A stretch of DNA of 64,000 nt from Candidatus Ghiorseimicrobium undicola (GTDB taxonomy: Bacteria; Omnitrophota; Gorgyraeia; Ghiorseimicrobiales; Ghiorseimicrobiaceae), in assembly GCA_002796125.1 (NCBI GenBank), contig PCWA01000075.1, positions 10,317 to 74,316 of the forward strand, in the 5' to 3' direction. Made by a program: the position numbers and the translations under genes. The notes beneath the pieces were generated by a model. It searched no databases and was not told the DNA's origin. It saw only the letters and a program-made list of their open reading frames with translations. Shown here piece by piece: positions 4,828-64,000 of the stretch; the stretch's first letter is position 1; each line of letters opens with the position of its first letter.

Positions 4828-5049
4828 TGTCAAATAAATTGTGTAAATTGTTTATCCATGGCTGCCTTGTCCCGATTTTTCGCAGGGACGCATAATTTTC
4901 CCCTGCGTGGAAAATTATGCTCCGCTACTCGGCCTCGCTCTGGCCGACAGGTAATCAAAGGCCAGCCGTGCCCGCTCGGCCTGCGTTAGGCCCTGCTCAA
5001 AATCAGTCCAAGCCAGCAGGTAAATTTACATAATTTATTCTACTCAACC
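4828..5049 (-). mobile_element. MITE-like repeat family A, copy 1 (reverse orientation)
   Basis: About 220 bp, matches 23567-23800 and 41176-41322. Imperfect terminal inverted repeats are ...ataaatt(a/g)tgtaaatt. Internal hairpins. Confidence 0.7.
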
Positions 5050-5054
5050 AGAGA

Positions 5055-6980: not shown

Positions 6981-8585
6981 TTATTTTAGCGGCCGTTCTA
7001 CCCTCTCGCTTAACTGGGTCAATTCTTCGCTGGATGTCTGTCCCGGCTCGACAATTTTCGCGGTAATAAAAACGAGCAAATCTATTTTCTCCGTATCTGT
7101 AGTTTTTCTCTGGAATAACCAACCCAGTAAGGGGATCTTCCCCAAGAATGGAACCCCTTGCCTGCCTTCCTTTTTAACGTCCTTAAGCAAGCCTCCGATC
7201 ACGATGGTTTCGCCGTTCTTCATTAATATCTGCGTATCGGCCTCACGGGTAATTATAATTGGATATTCCGCCAAAGTTGTCCCGTTAGAATCTTGCGCCT
7301 TTACCGTATCCGTAAAAGATGTAACCGCAGGATGTACTATCAAATTTATATAATCACCGCCGCTTATTTGAGGAACAACGTTTAATTGTATTCCTATGTC
7401 GCGATAGGTATCCAATGAATAATTATATATCACCCCGCCGGAGGTAGTAGTGGATTGCTCCGCCTTAAGAAAGGGGAATTTAGTACCTACTAATATAGCC
7501 GCTTCCTGATTGTTAAGGGTCAGTATACGCGGCGCCGAGAGAGTATTGGCGTGGATATTCTCTTCCAAGGCGTGAAGCACCACTTCAAATTGGGTGCCGG
7601 TTAATTTCTTGTAGAGGATTTCAAACCCTGTATTAAACGGCTCTGAGCTTGAAATCGTGCTCTGCTTAGGCCCGAATACGGAAGATGCCGTTTCTGAAGA
7701 CAATAACTGTCCGCCGAATTGAGAATTAGGCTCGCGCGTTCCGTCTGCACCCACGCGCTTACTGGCATCAACCAAACTAATAGTTGATGATTCTGCGCCT
7801 GAAGATCCTGTGCCCCAATCAAAACCTATATCGGTAAGCTCATCCCTGTTTACTTCCACAATTCTCGCTTCAATTAATATCTGTTCAGGGAGAATATCGA
7901 TATCGTTAACCACTTTTTCCATTTCATCCAAGACCGGTCGCACATCGGTAACAAGAAGAACCTTGGAGCGTGAAATCTGTCCTCCTCTTATCCTCTCGCG
8001 CTTAGACTGGTCGTCAACCGTGCCAAATTCCCAACCGGCCTGGCCGGTAGTTTCCAATACGGTAATCTTTCCTCTCTCGGATTTGATAGAATTTAAAGTA
8101 TTTGCTACATCTTTAGCATCTAAATATTTTAGCCTAAAAACCCTGGTTTCCGTGGTTTGTGTTTGCGAAAATTCCGCCTCAAGCTTCTGTTGTTCCGCCA
8201 GCTTTTCAAGAGGCCCGATAATAATAATACTGCCTTTTTTTACGTAACCAAACCCGTAGGTTTTAACTACCGCATCAAGGGCCTCATGCCAAGGCACGTT
8301 TTCAAGCCTTATCGTAACCAATCCCGTTACTTCCGGCCCCGGCACTATATTGACCCCGCTTTTTAAAGAGATAACCCGCAAGACGTTACGTATATCGGCA
8401 TCTTTAAAATCAAGCGTTATATTAGGACTCTCTTCTGCCGCGGCATTTTGCATTTCGGCAGGATTATTTTCAATGTTAGGATTCAAAGCGTTATCCGCAT
8501 AAACGCCTACGTTCCCAGATAAAAATAAAAAGCATAAAAACATAAAACAAAAAAACATTCCCCTGGTCCCTTTTATCTTCTTCAT
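6981..8585 (-). CDS. pilQ: type IV pilus secretin
   Basis: Signal peptide, secretin N domains, and the C-terminal secretin motif GGLLKDVKKEGRQGVPFLGKIPLLGWLFQRKTTDTEKIDLLVFITAKIV. Confidence 0.85.
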   Translation of the reverse strand: MKKIKGTRGMFFCFMFLCFLFLSGNVGVYADNALNPNIENNPAEMQNAAAEESPNITLDFKDADIRNVLRVISLKSGVNIVPGPEVTGLVTIRLENVPWHEALDAVVKTYGFGYVKKGSIIIIGPLEKLAEQQKLEAEFSQTQTTETRVFRLKYLDAKDVANTLNSIKSERGKITVLETTGQAGWEFGTVDDQSKRERIRGGQISRSKVLLVTDVRPVLDEMEKVVNDIDILPEQILIEARIVEVNRDELTDIGFDWGTGSSGAESSTISLVDASKRVGADGTREPNSQFGGQLLSSETASSVFGPKQSTISSSEPFNTGFEILYKKLTGTQFEVVLHALEENIHANTLSAPRILTLNNQEAAILVGTKFPFLKAEQSTTTSGGVIYNYSLDTYRDIGIQLNVVPQISGGDYINLIVHPAVTSFTDTVKAQDSNGTTLAEYPIIITREADTQILMKNGETIVIGGLLKDVKKEGRQGVPFLGKIPLLGWLFQRKTTDTEKIDLLVFITAKIVEPGQTSSEELTQLSERVERPLK

Positions 8586-23566: not shown

Positions 23567-23800
23567 GTAGTATACGGAAAATTATGTAAATTCGCCTGCT
23601 GGCTTGGGCTGATTTTGAGCAGGGCGTAACGCAGGCCGAGCGGGCAAGGTTCGCCTTTGATTGCATATTGGCGAGAGCGAGGCCGAGTAGCCGAGCGCGA
23701 TTTTCCACGCTGGGGAAAATCGCGCGTCCCCGCGAAAAATAAGGTCAAGCCAGCGGCCATATTAATCCGCTATAATTTACACAATTTATTCTACACAACC
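23567..23800 (+). mobile_element. MITE-like repeat family A, copy 2 (full length, about 234 bp)
   Basis: Matches 4828-5049 (reverse complement) and 41176-41322. Terminal inverted repeats and internal hairpins. The 74-aa track ORF inside it is considered spurious. Confidence 0.7.
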
Positions 23801-36304: not shown

Positions 36305-36313
36305 CTAATGAGG

Positions 36314-36363
36314 CCATAACTTATGGAGCTCGAAGAGCGACATAAGTTATTTGGCCGAATTAC
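36314..36363. repeat. Hairpin repeat family C unit (ATAACTTATGGAGCTCGAAGAGCGACATAAGTTAT + TTGGCCGAATTAC) between the rnfD stop and the rnfE start
   Basis: Seen directly. Related units at 39379-39650, 58023-58131 and 63564-63606. Confidence 0.7.
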
Positions 36364-37309: not shown

Positions 37310-37415
37310 GTCTATCGTCCAACGGTTGCGTAACTGGAAACGCTTATCGCTAATCGTAAAACGTAAAACTGATAAACGAAATACGAATGACGTTTCGAGC
37401 TACGCAACCGATAGC
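37310..37415. repeat. Repeat family B long palindrome, copy 2 (between rnfG and rnfD)
   Basis: ctatcgtccaacggttgcgtaactgg...cgagctacgcaaccgatag, homologous to 965-1070. Confidence 0.7.
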
Positions 37416-38047: not shown

Positions 38048-39322
38048 TTATCTCTTAATCTTTGTTTTTGCGTATTTTACCGCCTGGACTATTTTCCTGT
38101 TGACCGGGCAGCTATAAGAACAAAGCCCGCACTCAACGCAATCAAGCGCGCCGTATTCCTTTGCCAAATCCCATTTTTCAGATGCAACAGCCATGCTAAT
38201 CAAAGCCGGCGTAAGCCCCATCGGGCAGTTTTTAACGCACTCTCCGCAACGCAGGCAAATCCCCTCTTGCGCTTCTTTAACTTCGTCTTCCGATAAAACT
38301 AATATGCCGCTGGTCCCTTTGATTACAGGAAAATCATCGCTAAATTGCGCGATACCCATCATCGGCCCGCCCATAATTATTTTTTTTGCCTCTTTTTTTA
38401 ATGGCCCGCAAAAAGATATTAAATCTTTCACAGGTGTGCCTATTCTGACTTTTAAATTTCCGGGATTTTTTAAAATATCGCCCGTTACCGTAACCAGTCT
38501 TTCATAAAGCGGTTTATTTTTATATACCGCCTCAAATACGGCAAAGCAGGTGGCGACATTATGCACTACTGCCCCCACATCTAAAGGCAATTTTCCCGAA
38601 GGAACCTTACGCCTTAATACGGAATAAATTAACTGCTTCTCCGCGCCCTGGGGATATTTAGTCTTTAAGACCCGTATTGTGTATTGAGTATTAAGTATCG
38701 CGTTTTTGAAAACAGAAATTGCTTCCGCTTTGTTATCTTCAATTGCGATATAAATATTTTTAACGTTTAATATTTTGGCAATTATCTCGATGCCTTTTAA
38801 TATTCCTTCAGATTCTTCAATCATCAGCCGGTTATCGCTAGTTAAATACGGCTCGCATTCCGCGCCGTTTATGATAAGGCTATCTACCGGCTTAGGGGGA
38901 GAAAGCTTTATATGCGTAGGAAATGTGGCGCCTCCCATTCCGACAATACCGGCATTTTTTATCAAAAGGCGAAGCTCATCAGGACTAAAGCTATTTATCC
39001 TGCTTTTATCTAATAATGGAAATTGCTCCTCTGTCAAATTAATGTCGCGCTCTATTGTTATGGCCGTACTTTTTCCCAAGATGGGATGCGCGTATTCGCC
39101 TATGGCGGTAATTTTGCCGCTTATAGAGGCATGGACAGGGCTGCTAACGCTTGCCTCGGCACAGGCAAGAAGCTGGCCGGTTTTTACTGTATCATTTATT
39201 TTTACCTTTAGAATATCACAAGGCCTGCCGATATGCTGGATTAAAGGAATATAAGCCTTTTCAGGCAAAGGCATGGCTTTTATAGCTATATTTTCTGTTA
39301 ATTCCTTATTTTCTTTTATCAT
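38048..39322 (-). CDS. rnfC: Rnf complex subunit C (NADH-binding, 2x[4Fe-4S])
   Basis: 424 aa RnfC/NqrF-like protein with two C-terminal CxxCxxCxxxCP ferredoxin motifs. Confidence 0.85.
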   Translation of the reverse strand: MIKENKELTENIAIKAMPLPEKAYIPLIQHIGRPCDILKVKINDTVKTGQLLACAEASVSSPVHASISGKITAIGEYAHPILGKSTAITIERDINLTEEQFPLLDKSRINSFSPDELRLLIKNAGIVGMGGATFPTHIKLSPPKPVDSLIINGAECEPYLTSDNRLMIEESEGILKGIEIIAKILNVKNIYIAIEDNKAEAISVFKNAILNTQYTIRVLKTKYPQGAEKQLIYSVLRRKVPSGKLPLDVGAVVHNVATCFAVFEAVYKNKPLYERLVTVTGDILKNPGNLKVRIGTPVKDLISFCGPLKKEAKKIIMGGPMMGIAQFSDDFPVIKGTSGILVLSEDEVKEAQEGICLRCGECVKNCPMGLTPALISMAVASEKWDLAKEYGALDCVECGLCSYSCPVNRKIVQAVKYAKTKIKR

Positions 39323-39378
39323 CTAATGAACGCATTAGGCCCATCCTTTAAATGTATCAGGATGGCCTATCCTTGTGG

Positions 39379-39650
39379 ATAACTTACGGAGTTCGAAGAA
39401 CGACGTAAGTTATTTGCGCGAATTACTCCGCGGAATATTGAAAAATTATCGAAGAGAATTTTTCAATGTTTATGCAGCGAAGCATGAACCCATCCGCCTT
39501 ACGGCGAGATATGGGCGAATTATCCCGAAGCCTGCGAAGTAAATTTCGAAGAAATTTACGAGTGTTTAGGCGAGGGAACATTATTAATACTAATGGGCAC
39601 ATAAGTTACGGAGGCGCAGCCGACGTAACTTATAAGCGCGAATTATTCCG
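39379..39650. repeat. Composite of family C hairpins upstream of rnfC: two AACTTACGG...CGTAAGTT units plus two TCGAAGA-loop hairpins (ATTGAAAAATTATCGAAGAGAATTTTTCAAT; GTAAATTTCGAAGAAATTTAC)
   Basis: Seen directly. Overlaps the last codons of the MFS gene. Confidence 0.7.
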
Positions 39651-40985
39651 TGAAGATTCATTTATCAAACTTAAAATCCCAAAAAGCGCAAGAATTACGC
39701 CCGCGCCAATGAGAATCTTTGCCTGCCCTAATTTATCAGCCAAAAATGCGCTCAAAAGCATACAAACCAAAAATGCCAAATGTATAACAATTTCTACAGA
39801 ACTAAACACCTTTCCACGCATCTCATCATGGCTTAATTGATGTATCAGTGTGTTGCAGGCGGTTATTATCGGAGAAATGACAACCCCCAATACAATCGCC
39901 AATACCGCCGCCACTAAAAAATGCGGGTTACTCTTTAATATAAAACTAAAAGCTATCAAAGTAAACCCCACGCAAGACAGTGATAAAAATATCGTCTTAA
40001 ATAATGCAACCCTGTGGCCGAATCTGCCGTAAATAATCGAACCAAAGAATAATCCGCCAGCCAAAAACATAGCCAACAACCCTAAATCCTTAGTTGCTGA
40101 ATGTAACGCCTGCTGCACAAAAACTATAATTACGGTATTGACACTTCCTAGGGCAGCCCCCAATAAAAAAAGTACACCGATAATATAACGTAACTCTTTA
40201 TGTTTAATAAGATAAAAAAATCCTTCCTTCATTTCGCTGAATACCGATTTACGTATAACTTCTAAAACTCCCCGGCTTACGTTAATCAAGCTCTCTTTCT
40301 GAGAGGTTGCGATTCTTTTACTAATCAGAAAAATTAAAAAGGCGGAAATAAAAAAAGTTAAGCTATCTAAATAAAATCCCCCCTCTACGCCTATCCAAGC
40401 AGGAGAAACAAGTATCCCGCTTAAGCCTAATCCAAAAGCAGCGGCAATCATACCGGTAGTAGCAACTAAAGAATTAGCCAGAAGCAGGCTGCCTTTATCC
40501 ACCAAATCCGGGACTATTGCCATTTTCGCCGGAACGAAAAACCTTGAAATGCAAAAAATTATAAACACTATTAAATATATAGGGAAAAAAGAACGCTTAT
40601 AAAAGAACGCCAGAGGTATTAGCAATACAAGCACACACCGCAAAAGATCGCAAATATACATTGTCTTACGCCGGTCCCACCTGTCAACATAGACCCCGGC
40701 TACAGGGCCGATAATAAATACAGGAATAATAGTAAAAGAAATTATCTTGGCCAGCTGCAGAGCCGAACCCGGGGCGCGCTGATAGACAAGGGCGATAAGA
40801 GCCATTTGATTTAGCCGATCGCCAAATTGTGAAATTATCTGCCCCAGCCAAAGAAGAAAAAAATTCCTATTTTTTAAAATTTTCCTAAACCCTGCTCCTG
40901 ATAGGGCATCTTTCGATGGCCGTAAATTTTGTTTATTCTCCGAAGAAGGAATTTTATTTTTGCTGGAAATATTACTGCAATCCAT
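39630..40985 (-). CDS. MFS transporter
   Basis: 12 predicted TM helices, ...WLGQIISQFGDRLNQMALIALV MFS motif region. The N-terminal 40 aa is hydrophilic, so the true start may be further downstream. Confidence 0.7.
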   Translation of the reverse strand: MDCSNISSKNKIPSSENKQNLRPSKDALSGAGFRKILKNRNFFLLWLGQIISQFGDRLNQMALIALVYQRAPGSALQLAKIISFTIIPVFIIGPVAGVYVDRWDRRKTMYICDLLRCVLVLLIPLAFFYKRSFFPIYLIVFIIFCISRFFVPAKMAIVPDLVDKGSLLLANSLVATTGMIAAAFGLGLSGILVSPAWIGVEGGFYLDSLTFFISAFLIFLISKRIATSQKESLINVSRGVLEVIRKSVFSEMKEGFFYLIKHKELRYIIGVLFLLGAALGSVNTVIIVFVQQALHSATKDLGLLAMFLAGGLFFGSIIYGRFGHRVALFKTIFLSLSCVGFTLIAFSFILKSNPHFLVAAVLAIVLGVVISPIITACNTLIHQLSHDEMRGKVFSSVEIVIHLAFLVCMLLSAFLADKLGQAKILIGAGVILALFGILSLINESSRNNSRL

Positions 40986-41044: not shown

Positions 41045-41117
41045 AGCCGATGAGAGGAATCGAACCTCCGGCCCGCGCTTTACGAAAGCGCTGCTCTGCC
41101 AACTGAGCTACATCGGC
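41045..41117 (-). tRNA. tRNA-Thr (anticodon CGU)
   Basis: Reverse-complement cloverleaf GCCGATG TA GCTC AGTTGGCA GAGC A GCGCT TTCGTAA AGCGC GGGCC GGAGG TTCGATT CCTCT CATCGGC with the GTTCGATTCC T-arm. No encoded CCA. Confidence 0.8.
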
Positions 41118-41175: not shown

Positions 41176-41322
41176 GGTAGTATGCTGAAAATTATGTAAA
41201 TTCATGCTGGCTTGGGCTGATTTTGAGCAGGGCGTAACGCAGGCCGAGCGCCTGCGAAAAATAAGGCCGAGCCAGCGGCCATGTTAATCCGCTATAATTT
41301 ACACAATTTATTCTAGACAACC
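41176..41322 (+). mobile_element. MITE-like repeat family A, copy 3 (internally deleted, about 147 bp) next to tRNA-Thr
   Basis: Both termini match copy 2. The central ~85 bp are missing. Confidence 0.65.
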
Positions 41323-43837: not shown

Positions 43838-43966
43838 TTCGCCTCCTCAATGAACACATCCGCCGTAGGCAGACAAGTACGAATTTTCGCCGTAAGCGAA
43901 TCTCATGCCGTAGGCAGATCAGCCTGCGGCTGAAATCCCGAAGCCTACATAGTAATTTTAAAAAAT

Positions 43967-56927: not shown

Positions 56928-58013
56928 TTAAGCTAAAACTTCCTTATATACATTAATTGTTTTCTCTGACATAATTTTACTGGAAAATTTTTCGCCTATT
57001 AAATCATAAGCTGTTTTAGCTATAGAGCGGCTTAAATATTTATCCCGGATTAGCCTGACTACAGCTTGCGCAAGAGCTTTTATATCAAACTGCTCAACCA
57101 GCAAACCGGTTACTTCATGTTCAATGACATCGGTTATACCCCCGATGCGGAATCCAACACAAGGAACAAGATTACTCTGCGCTTCCAATATAGAAAGCCC
57201 CAAACCCTCCTGGATGGAAGGCGAAACAAAAACATCCATAACAGAAAAAATCTCTCCCAGCTCCGCTCTGGAAGGAATAATATGCACCTTATCTCTAAGC
57301 TTAAGCTCGTTTATAAAATCAGTTATAACTTTTTTGTAAGGCCCGTCTCCCACAATTAAAAGCTGCGCGTAAGGCTCTATAGACAGGACATGCTTCATCG
57401 CGCTGATTAAATATAAATGCCCCTTTACCGGAGAAAGCCTTGCCACCATGCCTACAACGGGCCCTTCGGATAAGCCTAATCTTTTTTTTATCGCGTTGAT
57501 GGGATAATCTTTTTTAGGATTTAATGCCACGCCGTTATAAACCAATTTTATTCTTGCCTGCCTTACTTTTAAATCCTCTATCAAATGTTTCCTGACCGCC
57601 CCGCTTATGGCTATAACCCGCCTGCCCCAAAACCCGAAAATTTTCCTTGCTAACTTCGGCTTAAAATAACCGTGGCACGTAGTTACATACGGAATGGATA
57701 AAGCCCTGCTTAAAAAGAAAGATAATACTTGGGTTACGCGCGTCTGGGCGTGTATTATTTCTATGTTTTTTTCTTTAATCAACCCTTTTAATCTTAAAAA
57801 CGCGAATATCAACTTAGGGCTTAACTCGGATTTAGTCCTCAGATTCAGGCCTATATGAACAATATTTTCTTTTAAAAGATGATCAGCGAGGTCGCCGCCG
57901 CTGGATGCCACAAAGACATCATGGCCCATCTTTTTAAACTCCAAAGCTAAATTTACTACATAACTTGCGATACCGCCGAAATTCAGGTGAGTGGTCAAAA
58001 TCAGTATATTCAT
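56928..58013 (-). CDS. glycosyltransferase family 4 (GT-B, RfaG-like)
   Basis: MNILILTTHLNFGGIASYVVNLA N-terminus and the C-terminal E-x7-E region typical of GT4. Confidence 0.8.
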   Translation of the reverse strand: MNILILTTHLNFGGIASYVVNLALEFKKMGHDVFVASSGGDLADHLLKENIVHIGLNLRTKSELSPKLIFAFLRLKGLIKEKNIEIIHAQTRVTQVLSFFLSRALSIPYVTTCHGYFKPKLARKIFGFWGRRVIAISGAVRKHLIEDLKVRQARIKLVYNGVALNPKKDYPINAIKKRLGLSEGPVVGMVARLSPVKGHLYLISAMKHVLSIEPYAQLLIVGDGPYKKVITDFINELKLRDKVHIIPSRAELGEIFSVMDVFVSPSIQEGLGLSILEAQSNLVPCVGFRIGGITDVIEHEVTGLLVEQFDIKALAQAVVRLIRDKYLSRSIAKTAYDLIGEKFSSKIMSEKTINVYKEVLA

Positions 58014-58022
58014 TTTAATGAG

Positions 58023-58181
58023 CGCGCAACTTACGCAGCGAAGCGAACGTAAGTTGTTTGCGCGAATTAATCCCGAAGCCTACGAAGTAAATTTCGAAGA
58101 AATTTACGAGTGCTTAGGCGAGGGATACATTTTACAACAATCAAGCAACCTAACCATAGTCCAACATGGCGTTAGGTTAAG
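58023..58181. repeat. Family C hairpin composite (CAACTTACG...CGTAAGTTG + GTAAATTTCGAAGAAATTTAC + AACCTAAC...GTTAGGTT)
   Basis: Seen directly. Near-identical to 39524-39582. Confidence 0.7.
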
Positions 58182-63395: not shown

Positions 63396-63606
63396 ATCCC
63401 TCGCCTAAGCATCGGGTAAATCTCTTTGATATTTACCCGGTAGGCTTCGGGTAGGTTCGGATTAAGCAGTATTTATCATAAACTAAATTATAACCTACTC
63501 CGAAGCTTAAGGGGTAAATTCTCCAAAGAGAATTTACCCCTTGCTTAAGCAAGGAGATAATTCGGCCTTATAACTTACGTCGGCTTCGCCTCCGTAAGTT
63601 ATGGCC
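63396..63606. repeat. Family C hairpin composite between lpxK and waaA (inverted CCCGAAGCC...GTAAAT units, GGGGTAAATTCTC...GAGAATTTACCCC, and GGCCTTATAACTTACG...CGTAAGTTATGGCC)
   Basis: Seen directly. The last hairpin overlaps the waaA stop. Confidence 0.7.
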
Positions 63607-64000
63607 TCATTAATTGAGAAATTAAATTTAGATTGCGCTCTGTCGCGCCTTGATTTTCAGATATTAAACGTTTTGCCCTGATCCCAATATTTTTTGCATA
63701 GTCCGCATCATATAAAATCTTGCACAAGGCTTCTTCAAGCCCGCCCTCATCGGCTACCTCGATAGCCGCATTATTTTTAAGATAAAGCGAAGCAATATGC
63801 GTAAAATTAAACATATACCTGCCGAATACTATGGGTTTCTGGAAATATGCCGGCTCGATAATATTCTGCCCGCCTTTTTTGACAAGGCTGCCTCCGACAA
63901 ATACCACATAGGCAAATTTATAAATTGAGCTTAATTGCCCTATCGTATCCAAAATAATCACTGAGCGCGGCATTTCTTTAAAATTATCAGCTGAAAATCT
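63599..64000 (-). CDS. waaA: 3-deoxy-D-manno-octulosonic acid transferase, C-terminal part (gene continues past the window end)
   Basis: ...VFVGGSLVKKGGQNIIEPAYFQKPIVFGRYMFNFTHIA... is the KdtA C-terminal GT-B region. The frame is open to the window edge. Confidence 0.75.
   Translation of the reverse strand, partial: RFSADNFKEMPRSVIILDTIGQLSSIYKFAYVVFVGGSLVKKGGQNIIEPAYFQKPIVFGRYMFNFTHIASLYLKNNAAIEVADEGGLEEALCKILYDADYAKNIGIRAKRLISENQGATERNLNLISQLMRP

Follow-up and report, generated by a model that had tools for sequence, protein, structure and literature searches.

Hairpin repeats at gene junctions of Omnitrophota, probably non-autonomous mobile DNA palindromes of one phylum-wide family

Between an MFS gene and rnfC, Candidatus Ghiorseimicrobium undicola carries a dense block of intergenic hairpins, which raises the question of what kind of element they are and whether they act as DNA or as RNA. 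The window analyzed here, the whole stretch of 64,000 nucleotides of contig PCWA01000075.1, holds further copies at other gene junctions. The original prediction saw in them different stems presenting one shared TTCGAAGA loop, and suggested either a sequence-specific loop-binding factor (REP/BIME-like elements with a dedicated binding protein or a RAYT-type transposase) or an RNA stability or termination motif. The phylum Omnitrophota is abundant, but hardly any of its members have been cultivated; the cells are very small and their genomes compact.

Hairpin modules of the window

The hairpins themselves are real: a 338-nt block folds much better than shuffled sequences, at z = -7.4 on one strand and -9.3 on the other. 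All three stem types originally described could be located. The first, ATAACTTACG-ga-GTTC-GAA-GAAC-ga-CGTAAGTTAT, lies at 39379-39413 and recurs at 36316-36350 and 58026-58060. The second, GTAAATTTC-GAA-GAAATTTAC, belongs at 39539-39559 instead of 39548-39568, and its second copy at 58087-58107 had been placed one base off, at 58088-58108. The third, ATTGAAAAATT-aTC-GAA-GAg-AATTTTTCAAT, spans 39437-39467. The tags GCGCGAATTA and GGCCGAATTA are likewise present, and in general form (GSSCGAATTA) the tag is the 3' outer arm of a 55-60 nt unit. The proposed gene contexts hold for the rnfD/rnfE junction, the region upstream of rnfC, the MFS 3' end, the space between glycosyltransferase genes and the neighborhood of lpxK, whereas waaA was not identified.

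At least six modules, all mapped on the plus strand, make up the block at 39323-39650, a nested compound insertion. Its first A-type hairpin begins with the outer left arm CTAAT-GA-ACGC (39323-39333), which abuts the rnfC start codon (complement of 39320-39322); on the sense strand the junction reads GCGUUCAUUAG-AUG. Nested between the outer and inner stems of this unit is a 45-nt hairpin, GGCCCATCC...GGATGGCC plus tail (39334-39378), followed by the core ATAACTTACG, GA, GTTC-GAA-GAAC, GA, CGTAAGTTAT, tt, GCGC-GA-ATTA (39379-39425), the last part of which is the tag. An inserted block (39426-39522) with three mini-hairpins closes again with GCGAATTA (39515-39522). The first mini-hairpin (39437-39467) has an H2-II-type apex, ATTATC-GAA-GAGAAT, and its apex ATTATCGNAGAGAAT recurs in H2 hairpins of the related loci L009, L044, L062, L084 and L090; the second (39468-39489) contains GCGAAGC and the third spans 39490-39514. 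Next comes an H2-I hairpin, TCCC-GA-AGCCTGCG-aa-GTAAATTTC-GAA-GAAATTTAC-ga-GTGTTTAGGC-GA-GGGA (39523-39577), of which orthologous copies occur in about 20 other genomes. The block ends with a second, degenerate A-type hairpin (39591-39645; TAAT-GG-GCAC ... GCGC-GA-ATTA), whose inner stem is AAGTTAC/GTAACTT and whose triloop is GCA. The MFS stop codon (39630-39632) lies within this hairpin, and the last ~8 codons of the MFS gene are therefore element-encoded.

Together with this block, the 64-kb window contains five A-type and at least four H2 units. On the plus strand, a solo A-type hairpin (36306-36362) fills the rnfD/rnfE junction exactly: rnfD stops at the UAA of UAAUUCG, and the AUG of rnfE follows UCAUUAG. 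Relatives show at this junction an overlap, ..ACAAAATGA.. or ..GTAAGATG.., and the element is absent. Also on the plus strand, at 58016-58125, an A-type hairpin (58016-58069) leads directly into an H2-I hairpin (58071-58125), both of them upstream of a glycosyltransferase gene with its start codon at 58013, and a 5' remnant of an H2-I hairpin, AATCCCGAAGCCTAC..., lies at 43934-43960 beside GNA- and GNRA-looped mini-hairpins at 43850-43930. An H2-I-like hairpin at 63397-63452, 15 nt upstream of the lpxK start codon, is reversed and has its GA form on the minus strand. The minus-strand feature at 63498-63612 combines an H2-like hairpin (63498-63556, GA form on the plus strand) with an A-type hairpin (63558-63612, GA strand minus); the minus-strand ORF upstream of it ends within the TAATGAGGCCATAA arm of the A-type hairpin.

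Architecture and selection of the unit

Across the family the basic unit is an imperfect hairpin of 55-60 nt, TTAAT-GA-GSSC-A-YAACTTAYG-GA-(variable apex)-GA-CRTAAGTTR-tww-GSSC-GA-ATTAA. Its outermost part is a 5-bp stem that includes TAA/TTA. Inwards follow a tandem GA.GA mismatch, a G+C stem of 4 bp, a small asymmetric bulge and an AACTTA-type stem of 9-10 bp; a second internal loop, GA.GA(A), separates the latter from the short variable apex, which is usually C-G-closed with a GNA or GNNA loop. The feet read TTAAT-GA-G, TAAGT-GA-G or TAAAT-GA-G, with outer ends (A/G)TGAG after TAA, and in canonical copies GSSC-A-YAACTTA is contiguous with nothing between. The two tandem G.A internal loops and the usual G-N(1-2)-A apical loop all lie on one strand: the rule C-G(N1-2)A-G fits 72 of 122 apical loops (GAA alone accounts for 28 of 122), compared with no T..C loop. 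Apex variants include GAA, GATA, GTTA, GTA, GCAA, AAA and others; the apex ranges from 5 to 132 nt in length and can be exchanged entirely between relatives that are 90% identical.

This architecture changes the reading of the supposed loop. Six of the eight bases of TTCGAAGA are paired, as TTC/GAA or TC/GA prolongs the stem with T-A and C-G pairs, and the actual loop is a C-G-closed GAA triloop. Nor is the word significantly enriched in the window, where five copies were seen against 2.46 expected and 12 of 100 shuffles reached five; the same applies to TCGAAGA (12 against 6.95 expected, reached by 5 of 100 shuffles). Hairpin apexes account for five of the eight plus-strand copies of TCGAAGA in the window. 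Plus-strand GAA-triloop hairpins with a stem of at least 4 bp are intergenic in five of seven cases, with 7.7% of the window being intergenic, and intergenic TTC-loop hairpins number zero.

The conserved parts of the unit are its arms and GA internal loops. In a count in which the right arm alone was ascertained and the left arm was free to vary, the arm pairs of the G+C stem were GCGC/GCGC in 48 cases, GCCC/GGGC in 30 and GGCC/GGCC in 26, and the inner stem occurred in four Watson-Crick variants with 51, 30, 13 and 11 copies. Two-sided changes were found in 14 of 19 pairs (299 cells), a number reached by none of 500 shuffles. This covariation of the arms demonstrates that the hairpin is under selection. 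Its pairing statistics are informative about the level at which it acts. Among 3587 stem positions there were 25 G.T, 23 A.C and 50 transversion mismatches, and the similar numbers of G.T and A.C imply that wobble pairs are not tolerated on either strand; subfamilies containing G.U were absent from the elements analyzed. The lack of G.U tolerance favors hairpins acting at the DNA level, and the RNA stabilization originally proposed may be a side effect. In folding predictions the GA strand would be the more stable one as RNA by 3.9 kcal/mol, in 176 of 184 elements. Near the hairpin foot, an internal sequence is complementary to the flank (TAAGT/ACTTA, TTAAT/ATTAA, TAAAT/ATTTA), and these pairs covary.

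Spread and insertion at gene junctions

The units are by no means a local duplication confined to this region. The pattern RTAASTTRTWWGSSCGAATTA was found in more than 116 stretches, nearly all of them, among the matches listed, in about 68 species-representative assemblies of Omnitrophota; roughly eight matches outside the phylum fit chance, for which about 35 matches were estimated over the whole collection. A sequence-free structural scan gave 164 matches in 898 kb against 0 in shuffled DNA, and a relaxed version 211 against 3; the scan imposes GA dinucleotides and arm complementarity, so that both are independent evidence only in the pattern-ascertained set. An unbiased sample contained about 21 units in 521 kb. 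Viral contigs scanned with the element pattern gave 0 matches, with no sign of a phage vector. At gathering thresholds Rfam 15 recognized only a tRNA in the whole window, and in 39300-39700, with E-values up to 5, its best sub-threshold match scored 26.5 bits compared with a gathering score of 60. A literature search on repeats, hairpins, palindromes or MITEs of Omnitrophota (Omnitrophica) returned nothing relevant. The family appears to be undescribed, a new one among genomic parasites of a well-known sort.

Neighboring units up to 400 nt apart form 39 convergent, 2 divergent and 8 tandem pairs with spacers of 2-267 nt. As they are mostly convergent inverted doublets, they act as long terminal inverted repeats. 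The doublets measure 124-382 nt, lack coding capacity and have (A/G)TGAGSSC... at both outer ends; H2 modules and mini-hairpins are inserted between the two units, next to the GAATTA boundary.

Comparison of filled and empty junctions shows that elements come and go among close relatives. In about 78 RnfC relatives no element stands upstream of rnfC, and the MFS gene and rnfC overlap or abut there. The loci L169 and L170 have flanks that are 99.7-99.9% identical, yet they differ by a whole 124-nt doublet. In L170 a 205-nt composite lies exactly between TAA and ATG, where L127 reads GGTTTTAAG|ATGG (TAAGATG). The junction of rnfA with the next gene, which starts MEILIP and is probably rnfB, is filled in L080, L158, L160 and L170, has kept a remnant in L124 and holds no element in about 14 relatives. 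Internal modules vary too: an H2 module between two units is present in L127 and absent in L169, and the central modules measure 240 nt in L193 and 25 nt in L197. Same-strain contigs from other samples were identical in the intergenic region and showed no polymorphism.

The fit to gene ends is close. The TAATGAG end of A-type units faces a gene start in 82 of 115 cases, mostly at -12 to +19 nt, and a gene end in the other 33, where the stop codon is often the element's own TAA or TGA. B-type units follow right after a stop codon in 21 of 27 cases, 17 of them at offset -2. Landing sites contain TA or TAA, very often the TAA stop codon of a tight operon junction, so that the upstream gene receives its stop codon from the outer end or keeps it there; at the opposite outer end, 1-19 nt separate the element from the following start codon or Shine-Dalgarno sequence. 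Filled and empty junctions are mostly compatible with a repeat of 2, 3 or 4 bp (TA/TAA/TTAA) at both ends, and also with insertion 3' of TAA by an element that itself ends in TAA; the empty site of L170, cctccCCCATAAc, differs from the simple pre-insertion sequence predicted from L169. Orientation relative to transcription is uneven: the TC form is in the sense strand in ~70% of A-type units, and the GA form follows the stop codon in 78% of B-type units. This bias counts against a purely selfish element, which need not show one.

A mobilizing enzyme was sought in the window and in 202 further loci, 1.44 Mb altogether. The RAYT/IS200-type gene originally envisaged was not found there: tblastn with E. 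coli TnpA_REP (verified against 4ER8) and with an approximate IS608 TnpA query detected no homologue, and the best E-value of 0.06 belonged to a membrane protein. Clustering of 1098 ORFs near elements at 116 loci gave housekeeping families only and no recurrent transposase family. An autonomous IS sharing the element termini (TGAGSSCAYAACTTA) was not found in loci of 8-10 kb, in which only two inverted pairs stood 0.4-3 kb apart, both enclosing ordinary genes.

Possible nature of the family and known systems

Taken together, the hairpins probably belong with the MITE/REPIN/BIME kind of element, as palindromic DNA that is mobile but non-autonomous and is spread through the phylum. The hairpin would be recognized as folded single-stranded or cruciform DNA, on its purine (GA) strand, by an enzyme whose gene would lie elsewhere in the genome. 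Candidates would be a HUH/RAYT-like enzyme or a DDE transposase generating the 2-4 bp duplication of TA, TAA or TTAA. The fit to such a duplication argues against HUH enzymes, and the GA.GA mismatches and GNA loops, which make sense only for a folded single strand, argue against a plain DDE/TIR mechanism. Transcribed copies would be tolerated passengers within operons, with secondary effects on mRNA. A bolder version, which we regard as rather unlikely, posits a new kind of ssDNA-hairpin enzyme throughout Omnitrophota that reads the rod with its two tandem sheared G.A pairs, pairs the internal TTA/TAA with the flanking TAA and thereby aims at stop codons, the element being expression-neutral. 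Neutrality would come from stop codons in several frames at the ends and an unpaired A/U-rich 3' tail before the AUG, and hairpins in the transcript would be left to the ribosome or an RNase. If true, the family would be a genome-wide, self-renewing system of operon spacers and not plain junk. Sequence conservation across a phylum is unusual in this context, as REP/REPIN systems normally diverge between genera, and it could reflect a host function instead.

Such a function might be sought in RNA. The hairpins could punctuate operons as processing or stability determinants in polycistronic mRNA. Placed behind a stop codon, a hairpin would shield the cistron upstream of it; placed before a start codon, it would be cleaved or melted at its base, which would yield a 5' end with a short leader or none, or would couple translation of the two cistrons. 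This explanation, which we judge distinctly unlikely, draws on the nucleotide-exact ends: CUCAUUA is followed by an AUG at 1-6 nt in 38 of 136 copies and by AAGGAGG with the AUG at 9-19 nt in 48 of 136, once directly by a tRNA 5' end, and 17 of 21 B-type units begin at the stop codon. It can also call on elements within obligate operons (groES/groEL and between rnf genes), on the 70:30 and 78:22 orientation bias, on recurrence at the same genes across species (accA three times, groEL twice, a 79-aa gene, probably for acyl carrier protein, twice) and on modeled sense (TC) RNA, in which the outer UAAU/AUUA stem is not predicted and the last ~6 nt would be free. However, positions are not conserved: besides the RnfC relatives mentioned, most relatives lack the element at rnfD/rnfE and at rnfA/next gene, and near-identical strains differ by an entire doublet. 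G.U pairs are not tolerated on either strand, both orientations are transcribed, and no Rfam family matches. Some copies stand upstream of sigma-70-like promoters or beside terminators and hence outside the downstream transcript. Insertion at TAA in junctions of 0-3 nt explains the abutment of stop and start codons. Finally, only 20 of the 62 window genes have a Shine-Dalgarno sequence, so that a start without one beside an element is not special; the idea of the element as a substitute for that sequence was dropped on the same count.

The remaining explanations fare worse. A sequence-specific factor reading the shared TTCGAAGA loop on unrelated stems, as first proposed, could appeal to TCGAAGA, which tops five window hairpins of three stem types and 8 of 22 H2-I apexes in other genomes, but among 184 A/B apexes a single one has the 7-mer, and the apex is what varies most within the unit. 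Because arms and GA internal loops are conserved rather than the loop, the premise of a conserved loop on variable stems fails and the proposal is largely refuted, which makes such a factor extremely improbable; the hairpins are not a loop-recognition signal. Rho-independent terminators or attenuators at gene ends are suggested by stable hairpins after stop codons, and this too we hardly credit. No hairpin is followed by a T/U tract, a terminator scan finds none in the block, and the sequence that follows is TTGCGCG, ATCCC or AAATG. Moreover, the elements lie within operons with an AUG 1-3 nt downstream, leaving no room for a promoter, and true T-run terminator hairpins adjoin them as separate features. 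A promoter with TAAGTT as -10 and a start near CTCATTA was rejected given the missing conserved -35 and the 5 to 132 nt range of apex length; genuine TTGACA-N17-TAxxxT promoters stand after some copies. Integron attC sites were discarded since inspection revealed no R''/R' core sites (RYYYAAC / GTTRRRY) and the elements are scattered in rnf, groESL, accA and LPS operons; for attC and CRISPR alike, array context is missing.

The hairpins matter in several ways. The family fills a large share of the scarce intergenic space of Omnitrophota and breaks metagenome assemblies: two contigs with identical RnfC stop 86 nt upstream of rnfC, inside the repeat. It rewrites gene ends, as in the element-encoded C-terminus of the MFS protein, and offers a ready marker for differences between strains and perhaps a means of approaching operon expression. 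In annotation, TAATGAG...GAATTA hairpins should be masked or modeled and not be taken for regulatory RNAs. Self-folding terminal repeats, strand-specific G.A features and insertion at stop codons fall neatly under neither the RAYT/REP nor the DDE/MITE scheme, and the identity of the mobilizing enzyme could inform our understanding of transposition mechanisms.

The REP/BIME-like character assigned in the original prediction was right in kind, given multiple extragenic copies, a mosaic of modules, mostly inverted doublets and presence/absence polymorphism. REP sequences and REPINs are elements mobilized by RAYT (TnpA_REP) tyrosine HUH transposases (Bertels & Rainey 2011, PMC3116915; PMC3337134; Messing 2012, PMC3479197; PMC5581495). 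Like these, the Omnitrophota units are short, imperfect, extragenic palindromes in high copy number, mostly in inverted pairs with a short spacer, whose hairpin is kept by selection; the asymmetry suggests that one folded DNA strand is recognized, and the presumed enzyme is not within the element. In contrast to REP/REPIN, the foot has no conserved 5' GTAG but ends (A/G)TGAG after TAA, the units are longer (55-60 nt) with two invariant tandem GA.GA loops, no RAYT was found in the 1.44 Mb searched, the junctions look duplicated by 2-4 bp (TA/TAA/TTAA), which HUH enzymes do not do, and the architecture is common to a phylum instead of a genus. Escherichia coli BIMEs and the BOX elements of Streptococcus pneumoniae are mosaic, modular intergenic repeats. 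They resemble the present family in their few hairpin module types with alternating orientation and recurrent linkers, in their location between co-transcribed genes and in module numbers that vary among strains, but sequences and taxa are unrelated, and only the Omnitrophota modules nest at a defined GAATTA boundary and have outer ends tied to stop and start codons.

Similarly, MITEs with TA or TAA target duplication, such as the Correia/NEMIS elements of Neisseria, IS630- and IS5-derived bacterial MITEs and the Tourist and Stowaway types, share non-coding units of 120-350 bp with terminal inverted repeats, co-transcription with flanking genes, insertion at TA/TAA with an apparent short duplication, and presence/absence polymorphism. 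Here, however, every terminal repeat folds on itself into a conserved hairpin and shows strand-specific G.A features, and no parent IS with the same ends was found in the 8-10 kb loci. IS200/IS605 family elements, whose miniature derivatives are PATEs, carry two end hairpins on the same strand in direct orientation; subterminal hairpins and a short flanking target complementary to internal sequence beside the hairpin foot are common to both systems, whereas the Omnitrophota end hairpins are inverted and no TnpA was found in 1.44 Mb. The last parallel is a physico-chemical motif rather than a genetic element. C-G-closed GAA/GNA triloops and tandem 5'-GA/3'-AG mismatches are classic stabilizers of ssDNA hairpins, and Hirao and co-workers reportedly described mini-hairpins of the d(GCGAAGC) type, in which a GNA triloop is combined with sheared G.A pairs. 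The Omnitrophota units combine the same triloops and mismatches, and exact GCGAAGC occurs in the window at 39476-39482 and 58037-58043, which lends circumstantial support to folding at the DNA level.

Hairpin units and the nature of their loop

The spacer between rnfC (38048-39322, minus strand) and the MFS transporter gene (39630-40985, minus strand), in the block 39323-39650, is a 307-nt string of hairpins that folds better than its dinucleotide shuffles (z = -7.4 for the sense strand, -9.3 for the plus strand). Two types of unit, A and B, are hairpins of 55-60 nt that differ in their outer ends, and further hairpins, the H2 modules, lie nested between units. Within the block, a 45-nt hairpin is nested in a first A unit; next come three mini-hairpins, closing with a second GCGAATTA, then a hairpin of the H2-I type and finally a degenerate A unit. 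The MFS stop codon falls inside this last unit, so that element sequence encodes the last ~8 codons of the MFS gene (..SSRNNSRL and the stop). The hairpin at 39437-39467 has an H2-related apex, ATTATC-GNA-GAGAAT. Elsewhere, a lone A unit spans the rnfD/rnfE junction from end to end (36306-36362), 58016-58125 holds an A unit with H2-I directly behind it, and elements in opposite orientation occupy 63397-63612. Almost all genes of the window lie on the minus strand, an extreme bias (~63 of 67 ORF calls), and plus-strand GC skew is negative throughout (-0.09 to -0.20).

The original prediction described a family of hairpins sharing the loop TTCGAAGA, many of them followed by a tag of the type GSSCGAATTA. 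Its three hairpin types were all recovered, one of them at 39539-39559, about 9 nt from the proposed 39548-39568. The hairpins are real, but they were wrongly described as a loop family. On folding, TTCGAAGA becomes a stem closing a GAA triloop via a C-G pair, and GTTC-GAA-GAAC, AAATTTC-GAA-GAAATTT and TC-GAA-GA are all stems of this kind. Neither word is significantly enriched in the window: TTCGAAGA occurs 5 times (2.46 expected, equalled by 12 of 100 shuffles) and TCGAAGA 12 times (6.95 expected, equalled by 5 of 100). The intergenic 7.7% of the window holds five of the seven GAA-triloop hairpins versus no intergenic TTC-loop hairpin. TCGAAGA is found in just one of 184 A/B apexes, which leaves a loop-binding factor without support; it is commoner in H2-I (8 of 22 copies, from ~20 genomes). 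What looked like a conserved loop is a preference for C(GNA)G.

Direct-repeat analysis of the window ties the tag to the preceding hairpin. The full element, TTAAT-GA-GSSC-A-YAACTTAYG-GA-[apex]-GA-CRTAAGTTR-tww-GSSC-GA-ATTAA, was read from unconstrained flanks outside the search pattern, and the tag is therefore the 3' half of the outer stem. Changes in the left arm match those in the right arm, on which the copies were ascertained (GCGC/GCGC 48, GCCC/GGGC 30, GGCC/GGCC 26), and the inner stem occurs in four Watson-Crick variants of 51, 30, 13 and 11 copies. An alignment of 110 sequences has both-side changes at 14 of 19 pairs (299 cells, equalled by 0 of 500 shuffles); as it derives from a structural scan that forces complementarity and GA dinucleotides, the arm covariation in the pattern-ascertained set is the unbiased evidence.

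A scan for the architecture without sequence constraint gave 164 matches in 898 kb and none in shuffled DNA. Their ends are chiefly of two kinds: A (TTAAT or TAAAT) and B (TAAGT, internal complement ACTTA). Each internal loop is a tandem mismatch of the form 5'-GA/3'-AG, with GA/GAA as an occasional variant of the inner one. At the apex, 72 of 122 typical units have a G-N(1-2)-A loop (GAA in 28, then GATA, GTTA, GTA, GCAA and others), T..C loops are absent from the GA (purine-type) strand of these units, and C-G is the closing pair in 85 of 118 recognisable apexes. Sheared G.A pairs and GNA triloops are classic stabilisers of single-strand hairpins, and, folded as RNA, the GA strand is the more stable one by 3.9 kcal/mol on average (176 of 184 elements). 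H2-I is a second conserved hairpin, TCCC-GA-AGC..G(A/T)AAATTTC-GNA-GAAATTT..GC-GA-GGGA.

Distribution, gene context and turnover

The pattern RTAASTTRTWWGSSCGAATTA, scanned against a 596-Gb collection with one genome per species (GTDB), matched more than 116 stretches, with ~35 expected by chance on our own estimate. Nearly all of the matches listed come from ~68 assemblies labelled Omnitrophota or Omnitrophica, or from Planctomycetales-labelled MAGs with same-looking full copies; about eight matches in other taxa (Chitinophaga, Pontibacter, Sulfuricella and others) have no left arm and agree with chance expectation. Viral contigs gave no match to the pattern. Density is ~21 units per 521 kb, and at least one unit is present in 14 of 80 loci of an unbiased RnfC sample.

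These 80 loci encode RnfC relatives at 50-60% identity. L-numbers below denote loci of related genomes, from this sample and from the pattern matches. Upstream of rnfC ~78 of the relatives are without an element, and in most an MFS-type gene and rnfC overlap (..CCATGGTTAGATTAG..), so that the 307-nt block is a lineage-specific insertion. The rnfD/rnfE junction is likewise element-free in most (..ACAAAATGA..; in L125 ..GTAAGATG..). A complete 124-nt A+B doublet is present in only one of L169 and L170, whose flanks are 99.7-99.9% identical. The empty allele of L170 (~1833-1838) reads cctccCCCATAAcaaa, where clean removal of the doublet from L169 (1231-1356) predicts cctccTTAAcaaa; this 4-nt discrepancy, in contigs otherwise 99.8% identical, may stem from an excision that left a footprint or from recombination that replaced the allele. 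L170 in turn carries a 205-nt B-H2-H2-A composite where L127, ~90% identical, has GGTTTTAAG/ATGG. An H2 module lies between A and B in L127 and not in L169, and L193 and L197 have flanking units in common around central modules of 240 versus 25 nt, one apex also differing. The junction of rnfA with the next gene, probably rnfB (it starts MEILIP), is filled in L080, L158, L160 and L170 and empty in ~14 other relatives. At this junction in L124 (~8400-8431), a 14-nt B-type left-arm piece (TAAG-CGAGGACATAAGTT-ATGG) is fused to the start codon, as if a former element had been deleted and had left this remnant or footprint. Contigs L118 and L122 (identical RnfC; independent assemblies of one strain) both terminate within A-type hairpin 1, 86 nt upstream of rnfC, showing that the repeats fragment short-read metagenome assemblies.

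Of the unit pairs within 400 nt, 39 are convergent, with TAATGAG ends outward, 2 divergent and 8 tandem; H2 modules of several types occupy the spacers, which are 2-267 nt long. The usual composite is gene1-TAA/B - H2 - A/(SD)-ATG-gene2, as in two L079 loci and the groES-groEL spacer of L105. The nearest gene is always on the TAATGAG-end side. For A units this is a gene start in 82 of 115, where CTCATTA leads to ATG after 1-6 nt (38 cases) or to AAGGAGG and then ATG at 9-19 nt (48 cases), and a gene end in 33 of 115, the element's own TAA or TGA often serving as stop codon. B units directly follow a stop codon in 21 of 27, in 17 at offset -2 with the TAA of TAAGTGAG as the stop. Other copies precede a tRNA gene, sigma-70-type promoters or terminators. 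Since only 20 of 62 window genes (about one third) have a clear SD, an SD-less start beside an element is not special here.

The rnfA junction shows where the element sits: all empty versions read T-TAA with ATG 0-3 nt on, and filled versions read ..TTTTAA/GTGAGG...CTCAT/TTAAT-ATG, which places the element immediately 3' of the stop codon and its final TAA just before ATG. Doublets end in TAA+GTGAG, TTA+ATGAG or TAA+ATGAG. Insertion at TA or TAA within junctions of a few nucleotides accounts for the precise abutment to codons, and no function is needed. The junctions are compatible with a duplication of 2, 3 or 4 bp (TA, TAA or TTAA) and equally with insertion 3' of TAA by an element ending in TAA.

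The window and related genomes also contain other repeats. An unrelated 88-nt intergenic repeat (termini GGTTGCGTARCT...AGYTACGCAACC, ACG-rich interior) has two copies, 83% identical, one upstream of gene 386-952 (971-1058) and one filling the junction of rnfD and the rnfG-like FMN_bind gene (37322-37409). An intergenic block of 120-200 nt, ending ..TTAATCCGCTATAATTTACACAATTTATTCTA.ACAACC, recurs with 93-100% identity at 23597-23800 and 41205-41322, with a partial copy at 5023-5050. One copy adjoins the only tRNA gene (41045-41117, minus strand), and the block may represent a further repeat family or else a promoter or leader that the sites have in common. Further small palindromic families occupy operon junctions of relatives (L127 6689-6748, L138 7990-8041, L159 4742-4813, L170 4675-4724, L187 5766-5837, L150 4233-4378 and 5575-5832, L152 3969-4111), with ends such as AACCCCGTTAGAAA...TTTCTAACGGGGT, AACCCCGCCCTTCC...GGAAGGGCGGGGT and GACAAATGACAAAATTCAAAT...; different families land recurrently at junctions such as rnfD/rnfE.

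Pairing in DNA or in RNA

The stems of 211 units from a relaxed scan (3 in shuffled DNA) hold 3489 Watson-Crick pairs, 25 G.T, 23 A.C and 50 transversion mismatches. Wobble pairs are no more frequent than A.C on either strand, and abundant subfamilies are separated by double changes, G.U intermediates being absent. These statistics are the expectation of DNA-level pairing or of very young copies, not of a conserved structured RNA. The element is transcribed in both orientations, at different places, and has no match in Rfam. A role in termination, also proposed originally, is unsupported, as no U tract follows any hairpin. Orientation is biased: the TC form, complement of the GA form, is in the sense strand for ~70% of A units, and the GA form follows the stop codon for 78% of B units. 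Selection for arrangements that operons tolerate may lie behind this bias. No outer stem is predicted in TC-form RNA, so that the nucleotides before AUG would stay unpaired.

Mobilisation and relation to known repeats

Taken together, we consider it likely that the hairpins are a mobile, primarily selfish family of DNA repeats. For how they move, a single-stranded hairpin (HUH-like) and a DDE mechanism appear roughly evenly probable. The outer 5-mer is complementary to internal sequence beside the hairpin foot (TTAAT/ATTAA, TAAAT/ATTTA, TAAGT/ACTTA) and covaries with it, which recalls the IS200/IS605 ends, where a guide pairs with the cleavage site; the possible target duplication, however, argues against HUH enzymes. 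A DDE-type MITE would accommodate such a duplication, but no parent IS was found in the sampled loci, and terminal repeats that each fold into a conserved hairpin, with G.A features specific to one strand, would be odd for a MITE. A 509-aa ORF resembling an integrase-type (DDE) transposase lies near one relative's RnfC locus (L136 971-2500), with no link to the hairpins. Clustering of 1098 ORFs from the 116 pattern-ascertained loci returned housekeeping families only and no recurrent mobiliser, and between the units of the only two inverted pairs spaced by 0.4-3 kb lie ordinary genes, not an autonomous element. By tblastn, E. coli TnpA_REP (sequence identical to 4ER8) and an unconfirmed sequence of IS608 TnpA had no credible match in the window and 202 loci (1.44 Mb). 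A RAYT-type gene is typically single-copy (PMC5581495), so samples of 8-10 kb per locus are compatible with one elsewhere in the genome.

The REP/BIME-like reading of the original prediction was right in kind, given the inverted doublets and filled/empty polymorphism. In behaviour the family is closest to REPINs, in which REP hairpins form inverted doublets and rely on an enzyme encoded elsewhere (PMC3116915, PMC3337134), and it also resembles the mosaic BIME and BOX elements and TA/TAA-targeting MITEs. Unlike REPs and REPINs it lacks GTAG; no RAYT was found in the 1.44 Mb sampled. Full-text literature searches turned up no account of such repeats in Omnitrophota, and the family is an addition to the broad class of non-autonomous palindromic repeats. 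As a type of element it is ordinary; what is unusual is that it spans a phylum, targets stop codons within essential operons and has hairpin ends with GA mismatches.
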